Of a DNA stretch of 64,000 bases, positions 32,753-37,496 are shown in pieces. Under the pieces are notes generated by a model. It was not told where the DNA came from and did no database searches. It saw nothing but the letters and a program-made list of their open reading frames with translations. A program made the position numbers and the translations under genes. Source of the DNA: an uncultured Christensenellaceae bacterium (GTDB lineage Bacteria; Bacillota; Clostridia; Christensenellales; CAG-1252); contig CAYMNK010000004.1 of assembly GCA_964391805.1 (NCBI GenBank), forward strand, positions 91,986 to 155,985, in the 5' to 3' direction. How positions within the stretch are numbered: position 1 is the first letter of the stretch; each line of letters opens with the position of its first letter.

Positions 32753-34252
32753 TTATAATTCATAACTTGTGGGAATATCTGCAAGTATCAAAAGTGTATC
32801 ACCCGATACAAGCAACTCGGAATATATCTTGATACATTCTTGCATATCACGCGCTATTCGAAAGGGAATCCTTTCACCAATAATATCAAGCATTGCTTTT
32901 TTATTCTTATTACCGAGAATTATAAGCATATCTGCACATTCTTCTACCTTATCAATCAACATATTCAAGGCTTGTTTGTCATTGCTTCCTTGTTCGACAA
33001 AGCCCGACGAAGTCACTATTTTCCTCCCATTTGCGGTTTTCAAAACATCTAATGCCGAAATTGCACCTAACGGATTGATATTGAAACTGTCATCTATAAT
33101 CGTGATACCCTTATCGTTCTTAATTAATTCCATCCTATGCGGTACAGCCTTGACCGAAGGTAGTGAATTAACGATATCGTCTATGTCGATACCAAGTCTA
33201 ATCGCTACACCTATTGCCAATATTAAATTGTCCGCATTCACGTTACCTAAGAGTTTAGATCGAATAGTTAATTCTTTACCGTCTATAACTGCATTTATTA
33301 TTGTACCGTCAACCGTGCATTGTTTAGAAATACACTGACTTTCACCGAAAAATACCGTATTACTTGGAAAATCATCACCTGCCCATTTGCATTTTTCATT
33401 GGCAAAACTCATATGAGATGCCTTTAAAAGCTTCACTTTTTCGCTAAATACCGCACCGATATCCCCAAATGTTTCAAGATGCTGTGGAGAAATGGCAGTC
33501 AATATCCCAATATCAACGGGTACGATATCTAATAAGCAGTCAATATCTCCTTTATGTCTTGCTCCGTACTCTACTATAAAAATATCGGTATCCGACGGCA
33601 TTGTCGAGATAGAACGCACCAGCCCCATAGGTGTATTGTAGCTTTTCGGTGTTACGTAAATCTTTCCGAGCGGTGCAAGCAACACTTTCAATATCTCTTT
33701 GACAGTCGTTTTACCTGCACTTCCGGTTATTCCTATTACCATTGGCTTAACGGTAGACAATTTAGTTTTCGCATCTAAAATGTAGCGATTATTTATTCGT
33801 TTTTCAATAGGATGCATAATAAGCAACGATATGTAAGCGAATATTCCGCTAAGTGCAACAATTATTCCATATGAATAGACATACTCTTTAACCCACCAAA
33901 TGGGAAGCGAAAGAGAAACAACTATCACGCTATATAGCGAATAACATCTAATAAGTCTATGTGTAAAAGTTACCCTCAACCCGATGTAGCGAATCGCTTT
34001 ATATACTCCCGAAATCAAGCTCGGTATCATTGTTATCAAACAAGCAACTGACGCGTCAAGAAAGTTTGAGAACTTAAAAATCAAGCTTAATACTACGGCA
34101 ATGATAAATGTCAAAGTATCTATAACTATAAGTTTTGTTACACCAAACAAGCAGTCCTTAGGCTCGTAACTTTTAGACTGAAATCCACCAAAGTAAAAAT
34201 ATGAATTGAGCAAAAATAAAAATAATCCAAATAGAAAAATCACAATATTCAT
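32753..34252 (-). CDS. murF: MurF-like Mur ligase with polytopic membrane N-terminal domain
   Basis: GITGSAGKTTVKE P-loop, central Mur ligase domain and C-terminal PHRMELI...IIDDSFNINP. The N-terminal 170 aa or so contain 5 hydrophobic helices. ATG 34252 overlaps the upstream stop (ATGA). Confidence 0.75.
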   Translation of the reverse strand: MNIVIFLFGLFLFLLNSYFYFGGFQSKSYEPKDCLFGVTKLIVIDTLTFIIAVVLSLIFKFSNFLDASVACLITMIPSLISGVYKAIRYIGLRVTFTHRLIRCYSLYSVIVVSLSLPIWWVKEYVYSYGIIVALSGIFAYISLLIMHPIEKRINNRYILDAKTKLSTVKPMVIGITGSAGKTTVKEILKVLLAPLGKIYVTPKSYNTPMGLVRSISTMPSDTDIFIVEYGARHKGDIDCLLDIVPVDIGILTAISPQHLETFGDIGAVFSEKVKLLKASHMSFANEKCKWAGDDFPSNTVFFGESQCISKQCTVDGTIINAVIDGKELTIRSKLLGNVNADNLILAIGVAIRLGIDIDDIVNSLPSVKAVPHRMELIKNDKGITIIDDSFNINPLGAISALDVLKTANGRKIVTSSGFVEQGSNDKQALNMLIDKVEECADMLIILGNKNKKAMLDIIGERIPFRIARDMQECIKIYSELLVSGDTLLILADIPTSYEL

Positions 34253-34935
34253 ACAATCCCCCTTGCAAACTCGGTAACTAATGAATAAAACCTTGTCGGC
34301 TCTTCTAAAAAACAAAAGTGTCCGCAGTTTTCGAATATAACCGTTTTATGCTTAGATATGTTACGCTCCAACTTTTTGAGCATATATATAGGCGTTTCCC
34401 TATCCTTTTCACCCCATATAAGCATTGTAGGTACGCTGATTATCGTTGTTAGTTTAGATAAATCCTCGTTAACGACATTGACAAAGGTCTTCTTCATTGT
34501 ACCGGTTAGCCGTTTATAGTCCTCAGAACCCATACTCGACGAAATTCTCATTCTTTTTAGAATTTTATATACCCCAACCTTGATGAAATAATCTAAACAA
34601 CGTTTTGGTTTTATTCCTGCCGAATCGACTAGAACAAGCCCTGCTACACGCGTATTGGATGCAAGTTTAATAGCAACCCTTCCCCCAAAGGAATGCCCTA
34701 TAACTATCACGTCTTCCATATTATAATAACGCATTATCTCTTCTACCGCTTGTACGAAATAATCGAGATTAATGGGAAAGGGAGGTGAGGGAGATCCACC
34801 GAAACCGTAAAAATCAAGCCTTGTTACGGTAAAGCCCTGTAAATTGTCCGCCGTTTTGAATATTTCTTTATCACAACCCCATCCATGCAAAAACAAAAGT
34901 TCCGCGCCACTACCGTTGCGTTCGTGTGAAAGCAT
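34249..34935 (-). CDS. Alpha/beta hydrolase (esterase family)
   Basis: HGWG oxyanion motif, GHSFGG nucleophile elbow, C-terminal GH. GGAGG SD. Confidence 0.8.
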   Translation of the reverse strand: MLSHERNGSGAELLFLHGWGCDKEIFKTADNLQGFTVTRLDFYGFGGSPSPPFPINLDYFVQAVEEIMRYYNMEDVIVIGHSFGGRVAIKLASNTRVAGLVLVDSAGIKPKRCLDYFIKVGVYKILKRMRISSSMGSEDYKRLTGTMKKTFVNVVNEDLSKLTTIISVPTMLIWGEKDRETPIYMLKKLERNISKHKTVIFENCGHFCFLEEPTRFYSLVTEFARGIV

Positions 34936-34965: not shown

Positions 34966-35403
34966 TTAGTCGCGATACAACCAATAAATCAAAGCGTCTT
35001 CGCCGTCCATGTAATAATGAGGTCTTACTCCGACGCATTTAAACAAATACTTCTCATATAAACCGATGGCTTTTACATTACTTCTCCTAACCTCTAAGGT
35101 CAAATTATCAAGCCCCTGCGTAAGAGTTTGACTAAGCAACGATTCCATCATCGCACTGCCGTAGCCGAAGCCTTGAAAACAAGGAAGTATCGCTACGTTC
35201 ATTATATGCGCTTCGTTAAAAATGTGTAAATAACTGTAGTAACCTATAACTTGTTCGTCCAAATAAAAAAGGCTGTATGTCGTATTGCTCTGCCCAACCT
35301 CGCTTTCGAGCATACCATAACTCCAAGGATCGGGAAAACATTGCTTCTCGATATCCTCTAAAGTCTTACAATCTTCGATACTTGCCTCTTTAATACTAAA
35401 CAT
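34966..35403 (-). CDS. rimI: Ribosomal-protein-alanine N-acetyltransferase
   Basis: GNAT fold motif (QGFGYGSAMME). Conserved tsaE-tsaB-rimI order. Confidence 0.8.
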   Translation of the reverse strand: MFSIKEASIEDCKTLEDIEKQCFPDPWSYGMLESEVGQSNTTYSLFYLDEQVIGYYSYLHIFNEAHIMNVAILPCFQGFGYGSAMMESLLSQTLTQGLDNLTLEVRRSNVKAIGLYEKYLFKCVGVRPHYYMDGEDALIYWLYRD

Positions 35404-35981
35404 TATTCTTTTTTACCCTCTCTCATTCTTTCTGCTTGAGATTTTTTTAGGTACATAGGTTCAAGCGGTTTTAATTCATTATGCTCAACCATATATACAG
35501 CCTTAGTAAACAATGCGGAAATATACTCGTCATCAGTCACTTCTCTGCCGTATTCGCTCTCCATATATCTATAACTAAAATCGGAATAAGACACAATCTC
35601 TTCCATAGATTTCTCACCGTATTCGCCGTCTAATCTGTAATAGCAATAACCACGTCTTGACGGAATAACAGCCAATCCTTCACCGAAGCCGTCAAATACG
35701 TTCAATCCGGATTTAGCAATATCCGCACCGAAACTTAGCGCGTTAGCAGTACAAACGCCTATTCTTATACCTGTAAACGATCCCGGACCTACAAGTGCAA
35801 ATACACAGTCAATATCTTGCAATTTAAGCTTAGATTCGGTCAATACGCTATCGATAAACGGAATAATAGAAGACGAAGTCGTACCCTTATTACCCGATCC
35901 GAATTTTTTATATATAGTACCGTCTACAAAAGTTGCAACAAGCATTCTGTCTGCCGTAGTATCTATCAATAACAGTTTCAT
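35403..35981 (-). CDS. tsaB: tRNA t6A37 biosynthesis protein TsaB
   Basis: MKLLLIDTT N-terminus, GPGSFTGIRIG motif and position between tsaE and rimI. Confidence 0.85.
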   Translation of the reverse strand: MKLLLIDTTADRMLVATFVDGTIYKKFGSGNKGTTSSSIIPFIDSVLTESKLKLQDIDCVFALVGPGSFTGIRIGVCTANALSFGADIAKSGLNVFDGFGEGLAVIPSRRGYCYYRLDGEYGEKSMEEIVSYSDFSYRYMESEYGREVTDDEYISALFTKAVYMVEHNELKPLEPMYLKKSQAERMREGKKE

Positions 35982-35982
35982 A

Positions 35983-37230
35983 TCAAATTCCCTCTATCGT
36001 AATTGTTCTCTCGGTTTCTGATAAATAGTCGATGTTCACGGTAATGACCTTGGCTCCGTAGTATTCTTGAGCGACAGTCCATTCAATAAGGCATACACTA
36101 TCCGCTAAACCATAATACTCCTCGAATCCGTAATCGATGTCACTTCCCGACGGTAACCTGTACATATCGAAATGATACATTTTAAGTCTACCCGATTCGT
36201 AACTATTCATTAAAGTAAACGTAGGACTTGTAATAGTTTCGCTAATACCCAAACCAAGTGCTATTCCCTTAGAAAAAGTAGTTTTACCCGCACCCAATTC
36301 GCCGTTCAAAAGAATAACCTCTCCGCCCGATAGCCGAGATGCCAATTTGACGCCTAAATTCATAGTTTGTTCTTGAGTACAAGTTACGTATTCCATAGTA
36401 GAATTATACAACGACTCGTCGTTTTTGGCAATAATATTTGAGTTATTTACGTTGTCCTGTGTATTATTGCCCTTCTTTTGGGCGTTAAATCGCTTATTTG
36501 TCGCTTTAATCAACTTAGATAACGGCTTGTATACAAGAAATACCGCTACAGATAATAAAACAGTTTTTATAAGATTAAATAATACCGCCCAATACCATAC
36601 GTCTAAATAAAACGCCATACCGTCAAGCCAAGGTGTATCCATATATACGCCAAGATAGAACGGAAAAGTCAACAAATAATTGATAGGCACCGAAAATGCC
36701 GTTTGAGCAATGACAGCACAAACAAGCATAATGATTACAGCCTTGATTCCCTTATGTTTTTTATAGGCAAACGAAGGAATCAATACATAAGGAAGCATTA
36801 ATAAAATATTGGCAAGTTCGCCCACTCCTACTGTTTGAGAAAAGGTCAAAGCGTGCAATAATTCTTTTAAAACTCCGACTATTATAGCCGACAACGGTCC
36901 CATGGTAAGTCCCGAAATCAATACAAAAACATTGGAAAAGTCAATTTTTAGAAATGGAACAGCAGGAAAAATGGGAAATTCAAATGTAGGTAAATAAAGA
37001 ATATATGCTATTGCCGTAAACAATGCCATATAGGTCAATCTTAACGGTGTAAAATACTTGGTTCTTATAACTTTTTCGTCCGTTTTCTCTTCGATTAAAA
37101 TAGGCTTATCAAAGTCGTTTGGCTCAATCGATTCATTGTTTTGAGAAGCTAACGAAGATTGCATTTGAACATTAGTACCGCTTGTTACATCATTAACAAC
37201 AGTGCTTTCGATATCTTGAATTTGGTCCAT
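35983..37230 (-). CDS. Single ORF fusing a RibU-type ECF S-component (riboflavin transporter) with TsaE
   Basis: Residues about 60-240 are RibU-like (FLKIDFSNV, 5-6 TM helices). The last 137 aa, from an in-frame Met at 36396, are TsaE (LNGELGAGKTTFSKG, SPTF, FDMYR). No stop codon lies between them. Confidence 0.75.
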   Translation of the reverse strand: MDQIQDIESTVVNDVTSGTNVQMQSSLASQNNESIEPNDFDKPILIEEKTDEKVIRTKYFTPLRLTYMALFTAIAYILYLPTFEFPIFPAVPFLKIDFSNVFVLISGLTMGPLSAIIVGVLKELLHALTFSQTVGVGELANILLMLPYVLIPSFAYKKHKGIKAVIIMLVCAVIAQTAFSVPINYLLTFPFYLGVYMDTPWLDGMAFYLDVWYWAVLFNLIKTVLLSVAVFLVYKPLSKLIKATNKRFNAQKKGNNTQDNVNNSNIIAKNDESLYNSTMEYVTCTQEQTMNLGVKLASRLSGGEVILLNGELGAGKTTFSKGIALGLGISETITSPTFTLMNSYESGRLKMYHFDMYRLPSGSDIDYGFEEYYGLADSVCLIEWTVAQEYYGAKVITVNIDYLSETERTITIEGI

Positions 37231-37267
37231 ATTATAAACCTCGAAATAGATTTAAAGCCGTTCCTTG

Positions 37268-37293
37268 AAAAAATATCCCGATATCTCGGGGTA
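37268..37293 (-). terminator. Expression-platform terminator of the FMN riboswitch
   Basis: Minus strand: 8-bp stem (TACCCCGA...TCGGGATA) with a 4-nt loop, followed directly by T6. It lies about 35 nt upstream of the ribU ATG. Confidence 0.65.
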
Positions 37294-37310
37294 ACAAACT
37301 AAAGTAGTTT

Positions 37311-37425
37311 CATTCTTTTCTCATCCGGACTGTTACCGTAGGTACGGGAATTTCACCCGTTCGGGACCGAAGTCTTCGTGGACTATACCACCTGTGGGGA
37401 TTTACACCCCGCCCCAAAGAATAAC
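37311..37425 (-). promoter_or_regulatory. FMN riboswitch (RFN element) aptamer
   Basis: Minus strand: UUCUUUGGGGCGGGGUGUAAAUCCCCACAGGUGGUA...GGGUGAAAUUCCCGUACCUACGGUAACAGUCCGGAUGAGAAAAGAAU. This matches the conserved RFN core. P1 is UUCUUU/AAAGAA. It lies upstream of a RibU-like gene. Confidence 0.9.
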
Positions 37426-37496
37426 TTTATTAATTGAAGTATATCACTAAATATATTTGGTGTCAATAATTAGTGAAGTATTTATTGACTTTTCAT

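Follow-up and report, generated by a model that had tools for sequence, protein, structure and literature searches.

The window analysed here is a stretch of 64,000 nucleotides (nt) of contig CAYMNK010000004.1, which belongs to a metagenome-assembled genome (MAG) of an uncultured gut Christensenellaceae bacterium of the order Christensenellales (GCA_964391805.1, G000; 28 contigs, 94.8% complete). On its minus strand, a flavin mononucleotide (FMN) riboswitch precedes a single open reading frame (ORF) of 415 codons that encodes both RibU, the riboflavin S component of an energy-coupling factor (ECF) transporter, and TsaE. The latter is the ATPase that resets the bacterial TsaBD machinery for the N6-threonylcarbamoyladenosine (t6A37) modification of tRNA, and it is normally a small soluble protein. 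The fused gene is followed by tsaB and rimI (Table 1). A preliminary description of this DNA had reported a frame of this length without a stop codon between its two parts, with tsaB starting 1 nt after its end and rimI next in line; the ORF and domain searches bear out the first statement, and the coordinates together with matches to TIGR03725 and TIGR01575 bear out the second.

Table 1. Features of the ribU-tsaE locus in the window, and junction hairpins in related loci.
Feature	Coordinates	Strand	Basis
Promoter-like site TTGACA-17-TATACT, TG-extended, before the riboswitch	37438-37466	minus	11/12 consensus positions; consensus match only
FMN riboswitch aptamer (RFN element)	37309-37425	minus	RF00050, 102.3 bits
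Terminator-like hairpin CCCGAGATATCGGG + ATATTTTTTC, putative expression platform	37267-37290	minus	Scan; also seen in the leader fold
Shine-Dalgarno GAGG, 8 nt ahead of the ribU ATG at 37230	37239-37242	minus	Sequence reading
ribU-tsaE ORF, 415 codons, TGA stop at 35983-35985	35983-37230	minus	ORF list, domain searches, relatives
Disordered N-terminal extension, residues 1-51	37078-37230	minus	AlphaFold2, pLDDT <50
RibU (ECF riboflavin S component) domain, residues ~64-245	36496-37041	minus	PF12822; solved RibU relatives; AlphaFold2
Linker, residues 246-278, basic then Asn/Lys-rich, carrying the internal promoter	36397-36495	minus	AlphaFold2, alignment
Internal sigma-70-type promoter: -35 TTGCCA 36431-36426, 17-nt spacer, -10 TATAAT 36408-36403	36403-36431	minus	11/12 consensus positions
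ATG of Met279, predicted transcription start site and leaderless start codon of free TsaE	36394-36396	minus	Position, relatives; transcription start predicted
TsaE domain, residues 279-415, Walker A GELGAGKTT	35986-36396	minus	Profile and structure matches
tsaB, start 1 nt past the fusion stop, Shine-Dalgarno GAGGGA	35403-35981	minus	TIGR03725, 80.7 bits versus cut-off 69.3
rimI, start overlapping the tsaB stop	34966-35403	minus	TIGR01575, 110.1 bits versus cut-off 86.4
Hairpin at the ribU/tsaE junction of tandem-separate loci	L005:1413-1507(-), L030:3267-3361, L032:3163-3257, L035:3834-3928, L037:3118-3212, L043:3323-3417, L044:3212-3306, L047:4307-4401, L055:514-608, L056:5285-5379, L036:3198-3290, L052:3307-3399

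About 30 clusters of the protein database searched carry both Pfam domains of this protein, and the corresponding NCBI records name them just "TsaE". The same open frame occurs in a 92%-identical relative (P0001/L070), assembled independently in six Logan contigs from one study, and at 81-82% identity in G002/L003/L022 (CAZUET010000017, an "uncultured Christensenellaceae" MAG). Substitutions alone, with no indels, separate the junction DNA of both relatives from that of the window. The recurrence of the open frame in independently assembled relatives indicates that the fused ORF is real and conserved and not an assembly artefact. That a real stop codon or frameshift between ribU and tsaE was missed in assembly or sequencing is extremely improbable: the window genome is indeed a MAG of 28 contigs with 94.8% completeness, but such an error would have to recur both in the six contigs of the closer relative and in CAZUET010000017, the junction DNA of which is nearly identical to that of the window.

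The RibU half matches PF12822 (ECF_trnsprt) at residues 64-234 (6e-22, 78.9 bits versus 30.7), and the only transporters among its solved relatives are the RibU structures 3P5N (1.3e-15), 5KBW and 5KC0. The RibU-specific NCBIfam model gave no match; within that collection this half matched only a folT-family model, below its cut-off. The TsaE half matches PF02367 at residues 285-409 (3.4e-34) and TIGR00150 with 115.8 bits versus a cut-off of 60.1, and its solved relatives are 5MVR (1.8e-24) and 6N9A. The GELGAGKT, SPTF, H-D-YR and EW motifs are invariant across 31 aligned fusion proteins, and the last 137 residues are a complete TsaE with GELGAGKTT, as had been proposed. This is the only TsaE in the window genome, and tsaB is located directly downstream of it.

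An AlphaFold2 model built with 31 fusion homologues comprises two independent folded domains separated by a disordered linker. The helical bundle spans residues 52-253, the predicted local distance difference test score (pLDDT) is below 50 at residues 1-51 and 253-275, and the first beta-strand of TsaE begins at residue 278. The assignment of about 280 N-terminal residues to RibU thus holds for the fold itself, at residues ~52-253, but not for residues 1-51 and the linker at ~254-277, which are predicted to be disordered. The N-terminal extension (37078-37230) is poorly conserved, is common only to the closest relatives and, in a different sequence, to L024 and L027, and DNA identity to G002 falls to 47-70% over it. 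The linker shows no protein conservation among the fusions except for the pattern Y-N-x-x-M, and the tail past the last RibU helix is strongly basic (KLIKATNKRFNAQKK). The structures of RibU, ThiT and BioY have established that the C-terminus of ECF S components is cytoplasmic. This topology and the basic tail indicate that the TsaE domain of the fusion should face the cytoplasm on a linker of ~25 residues.

The riboswitch is a full aptamer (positions 1-138 of the RF00050 covariance model) that scores well above the gathering score of 66.2, in agreement with the RFN element seen earlier ahead of the ORF. It is the single FMN riboswitch found by a search of the whole window genome, and it is 97-100% identical to its orthologue in G002. 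The hairpin CCCGAGATATCGGG with the T-run ATATTTTTTC lies 19 nt past the aptamer (37290-37277). With a stem of only 5 pairs, its identity as a terminator is suggested mainly by its position behind the aptamer; one terminator-like site was found against 1.9 expected in shuffled sequences, so chance alone readily yields such sites. The predicted fold of the riboswitch leader does not exceed those of shuffled sequences in stability, a comparison that carries no information for a riboswitch of this kind. Lumazine synthase (ribH) was not detected in the 94.8% complete genome, and together with the single FMN riboswitch this suggests that the organism is probably a riboflavin auxotroph relying on the RibU of the window. 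One EcfT is encoded (PF02361, 161 bits), which points to an ECF energising module in the genome. The RFN aptamer and the putative expression platform directly upstream of an S component gene recall the riboswitch-controlled ribU (ypaA) of Bacillota, for example of Bacillus subtilis. In contrast to these genes, ribU of the window lacks a stop codon and continues into tsaE, which means that read-through of the riboswitch would also transcribe tsaE-tsaB-rimI. Scanning revealed no terminator-like site between ribU and tsaE in the window, and the RNA of this junction folds no better than shuffled sequence (z = -0.3).

A second regulatory signal lies within the fused gene itself. The linker codons include the sequence TTGCCA-17-TATAAT, matching 11 of the 12 consensus positions, with the -10 box ending 6 nt before the ATG of Met279. 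The sequence preceding this ATG, GAGTCGTTGTATAATTCTACT, contains no Shine-Dalgarno motif. Both the missing Shine-Dalgarno and a TATAAT-like box at about 36405 had been noted before; the box proves to be the -10 element of a complete promoter-like sequence. To assess this arrangement, tsaE loci were compared from 40 relatives across the order and, in addition, from GTDB species representatives (46 loci); in these, tsaE is usually a gene of its own. Almost all of the 40 relatives have a ribU with an FMN riboswitch beside tsaE, either in tandem or divergently. Of 59 loci, a count that includes the window and two duplicate records, 37 have an exact TATAAT-N6-8-ATG with TTGxxx at 17 nt in front of tsaE. 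The 37 loci represent the genus, family and order of the window as well as further MAGs of Christensenellales. In most of them tsaE is free-standing, with in-frame stop codons 1-30 codons upstream, no Shine-Dalgarno, and always ATG as the start; the position of the stops and the missing Shine-Dalgarno mean that this ATG must be the start of tsaE. Met279 of the window aligns with the start methionine of these free-standing proteins. The internal motif is best interpreted as the ancestral leaderless promoter of tsaE. With TATAAT at this distance, transcription should begin at the A of the ATG or at its neighbour, as is typical of leaderless mRNAs, so that transcription from the ATG at 36396 and leaderless translation of TsaE are predicted. 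The presence of the same promoter-to-ATG arrangement in relatives and in the fused lineages attributes the missing Shine-Dalgarno to a leaderless mRNA rather than to an obligate fusion; tsaE of this lineage normally lacks such a motif.

Selection also appears to maintain the promoter within the fused gene. In a comparison of the window with the 82%-identical G002, DNA identity reaches 90-97% over positions 36458-36340 compared with ~80% elsewhere, which makes this segment second only to the aptamer in conservation; the linker codons just upstream are 70-73% identical. A three-way alignment of the window, the 92% relative and G002, lineages ~20% apart in DNA, shows an invariant -35 box, -10 box, 6-nt interval and ATG, while the spacer between the two boxes varies. 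A palindrome in this spacer, AACGAC-GA-GTCGTT, was considered as an operator and dropped, since it is not kept in the 92% relative. The distantly related fused genes of L024 and L027 have kept TTGCAA-17-TATAAT-N6-ATG together with the riboswitch. In their proteins the module is visible as Y-N-x-x-M (TAT AAT nnn nnn ATG) within an otherwise unalignable linker.

The leaderless arrangement appears not to be confined to tsaE. In the window genome, 29 ORFs of 100 codons or more start at the ATG of a TATAAT-N6-ATG sequence (for example C16:1580+, C6:69205- and C10:61046+), compared with 3-22 ORFs for the other spacings between 0 and 20 nt and 3-13 for spacings of 2-15 nt. About 20 of the 29 resemble true gene starts, with a TTG-type -35 box and almost no open frame upstream, and leaderless mRNAs thus appear to form a regular gene class in this genome. 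Leaderless mRNAs described by Zheng et al. (2011, BMC Genomics 12:361), as cited in PMC5335608, carry the -10 box ~7 nt before the 5' AUG; the window and its relatives, with TATAAT 6-8 nt before ATG and no Shine-Dalgarno, agree with the type as cited there. What differs from that type is that the promoter of the window doubles as coding sequence for the linker in a longer ORF (Y-N = TAT AAT). Because the promoter lies within this ORF, the same ATG would be an internal methionine codon on one transcript and the 5'-terminal start codon on the other. The order tsaE-tsaB-rimI and the tight coupling of tsaB and rimI are shared with the tsaE-tsaB-rimI(-tsaD) operons of B. subtilis (ydiB-ydiC-ydiD-ydiE) and Mycobacterium tuberculosis. 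The window departs from these operons in having its tsaE promoter inside the reading frame of the upstream gene. In the tsaE operon of M. tuberculosis (alr-groEL1), leaderless architecture is completely absent (PMC5335608), in contrast to the leaderless-type promoter of tsaE in the window and its relatives.

Taken together, the locus most probably produces two transcripts and two forms of TsaE, a reading to which we assign a probability of roughly 70%. Transcription from the internal promoter would yield a leaderless tsaE-tsaB-rimI mRNA and hence ordinary free TsaE, constitutively and independently of FMN. At low FMN the riboswitch would open and transcription would proceed into ribU and, with no stop codon or terminator in the way, result in a RibU-linker-TsaE protein, the TsaE domain of which would hang on the cytoplasmic side of the membrane. 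Initiation at the internal AUG of this long transcript is unlikely, as no Shine-Dalgarno precedes it. The transcript from the riboswitch would also add some expression of tsaB and rimI. We infer that the fusion protein is made and active. The t6A genes are probably not hostage to the FMN riboswitch, because tsaE appears to keep its ancestral leaderless promoter inside the fusion. A placement of these genes behind an FMN-repressed terminator, one of two readings offered by the preliminary description, is probably not the whole truth, given the retained internal promoter.

Alternatively, the fusion could be obligate and FMN-controlled. In this case the internal promoter would be a dead relic, all TsaE of the cell would be the C-terminal domain of RibU, tsaE-tsaB-rimI would depend on riboswitch read-through, and t6A capacity would follow flavin status. 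The single ORF, the missing Shine-Dalgarno at Met279, the lack of a terminator before tsaE and the single tsaE in the genome are all consistent with such an arrangement; moreover, no ribH was found, which makes a dependence of the cell on RibU probable, and the riboswitch may thus be open for a large part of the time. A separate Christensenellales clade, clade b, does live with an obligate fusion. It comprises L023, L025, L026, L029 and L067, together with most of the metagenomic fusion proteins aligned. The junction of clade b fusions contains neither an internal ATG nor a promoter, the only in-frame candidates for an alternative start being TTG or GTG codons without Shine-Dalgarno. No riboswitch is present in front of these genes, which start 8 nt after a PAP2 gene; in one of the genomes an FMN riboswitch is kept before ribD instead. 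None of the five clade b genomes has another TsaE besides the fusion, and in four of the five no other RibU-like gene occurs. This exclusive use suggests that a tethered TsaE can work, and makes plausible the other reading of the preliminary description, a membrane-tethered TsaE. The invariant TsaE motifs of the aligned fusions and the two independently folded domains of the model likewise favour a viable tethered form.

The same clade speaks against obligate FMN control in the window. Where the fusion is the sole source of TsaE the riboswitch is gone, and where the riboswitch is kept the internal promoter is kept as well. This joint retention or joint loss argues that making all TsaE under FMN gating is avoided, and the loss of both elements in clade b suggests that such an arrangement is not tolerated. 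In addition, a relic would hardly stay invariant from promoter to ATG across lineages ~20% apart in DNA while the neighbouring linker codons drift, and it would make little physiological sense for the cell to lose a near-essential tRNA modification whenever FMN is abundant. An obligate FMN-controlled fusion in the window is therefore quite unlikely.

It is also unlikely that the fused form is neutral read-through, with free leaderless TsaE doing all of the t6A work and the fused tail being inert or clipped, and tolerated. The retained internal promoter, the disordered and variable linker, and the existence of a close relative of the same genus with both genes separate (G006) fit this possibility. 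Against it, the sole TsaE of clade b is tethered and appears to suffice, and the fused frame has persisted without indels or stops in three lineages of the group of the window, although the latter is a weak argument owing to ascertainment.

Some points weigh against two functional forms of TsaE made from nested promoters. The fused form may be a neutral by-product without function if free TsaE is made anyway. The obligate fusion of clade b can replace free TsaE, so that an internal promoter is not logically required. Twelve promoter-like sites occur in 2.4 kb of the locus compared with 8.1 expected, and a consensus match in AT-rich coding DNA can arise by chance; the argument for the promoter is therefore based on its comparative conservation. 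Finally, the high DNA identity reaches ~55 nt into tsaE and may partly reflect a cause other than the promoter.

The junction of the window differs from those of relatives in which ribU and tsaE are arranged in tandem as separate genes. Twelve such loci from other families share a conserved hairpin of 12 pairs, 5 of them with compensatory changes, in which the -10 box lies in the loop and the 3' arm consists of the tsaE ATG and codons 2-3; a run rich in T comes next. The structure resembles a terminator of ribU that shares its sequence with the start codon and the leaderless promoter of tsaE. The conserved N-terminus of TsaE in these loci, M-A-V-F-I-S, would double as stem and U-tract. Transcripts coming from ribU would stop at the hairpin, and those begun at the ATG would lack its 5' arm. 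In agreement with read-through from ribU into tsaE, this hairpin is absent from the window.

Relatives with two separate genes, which had been named beforehand as evidence against the fusion, were found in the orthologue survey, G006 being an example. In this genome of the same genus (L004:2200-2815 = L031) a non-coding insert of ~630 nt separates ribU and tsaE. The TATAAT-N6 promoter of its tsaE is lost, and a Shine-Dalgarno-like motif, AAGGAAA, is located 9 nt before the ATG. A comparison of the insert with the hairpin repeats upstream of the window riboswitch gave no blastn-short match at E <= 0.01.

Phylogenetic analysis of TsaE places the window with genomes of the same genus (support 95), among which G006 has separate genes and G004 a divergent ribU. 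Clade b forms a clade of its own (support 97), and L024 and L027 fall among the tandem-separate loci. Parsimony requires 3-4 state changes. A single origin of all fusions was rejected, as the constraint costs 123 log-likelihood units (approximately unbiased (AU) test, p = 5e-14), with the caveat that the fused group was defined by the trait itself after the first tree had been seen. The number of changes and the rejection of a single fused group point to at least three origins of the fusion. Clade b shares with the window the domain order and the downstream tsaB, rimI, alpha/beta hydrolase and membrane MurF-like genes. It differs in lacking the riboswitch, internal ATG and promoter, in following PAP2, and in its independent fusion on the TsaE tree. 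In two records the titles disagree with the Christensenellales/Bacillota type of the ribU-tsaE module: L060 (JBLNCA010000014, "Burkholderiales bacterium") and L026 (JAMPDA010000019, "Roseburia sp."). Both group with Bacillota MAGs on the trees, and the bins are probably mislabelled or contaminated.

The fusion would have arisen from an ancestral tandem of a riboswitch-controlled ribU and a leaderless tsaE by loss of the ribU stop codon. It is plausible that a leaderless gene fuses easily with its upstream neighbour, since no ribosome-binding site of its own must be maintained and its promoter can be translated as part of a frame, so that loss of the upstream stop is enough. The RibU part may have a separate history. 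It is 58-68% identical to RibU proteins of other families (58-76% when G006 is included) and only 30-37% identical to the riboswitch-linked RibU encoded beside tsaE in most genomes of the same genus and family (L006-L020 compared). The TsaE part is closest to TsaE of the same genus. These differing affinities suggest that ribU may have been replaced at this site in the sub-lineage of the window before the fusion.

The relatives suggest a possible series, from separate genes with a terminator over the promoter, through a fusion that retains riboswitch and internal promoter, as in the window, to an obligate fusion devoid of both. A bolder proposal is that the joining of RibU and TsaE on at least three occasions was no mere accident of gene order. 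Tethered TsaE would then act at the ECF transporter or link the turnover of the t6A machinery to flavin supply, and the window would represent an intermediate stage with free and membrane-bound isoforms produced from nested promoters. We consider this proposal improbable.

The components of the locus are all of known kinds, namely an FMN riboswitch with ribU, a tsaE-tsaB-rimI operon, leaderless promoters and domain fusions, but their combination was not found described; the literature search returned no description of a RibU-TsaE fusion or of a leaderless tsaE. The locus suggests a way in which a leaderless gene can become part of the gene before it and yet keep its independent expression, with the promoter surviving as linker codons. 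The name "TsaE" given by annotation pipelines misses the transporter half and the likely internal start. The usual regulon inference, by which a riboswitch upstream implies FMN regulation of the whole operon, is probably wrong here. For the t6A field, clade b raises the question of whether TsaE can function while tethered to the membrane.

Further downstream, positions 32753-34935 of the window correspond to L023:4697-6113 of the distant clade b, in which the same order of tsaB, rimI, alpha/beta hydrolase and Mur-ligase-like genes is observed. The product of the last gene carries an N-terminal multi-helix membrane domain. Conservation of this synteny in clade b indicates that the membrane-anchored MurF-like protein is not peculiar to the window genome.

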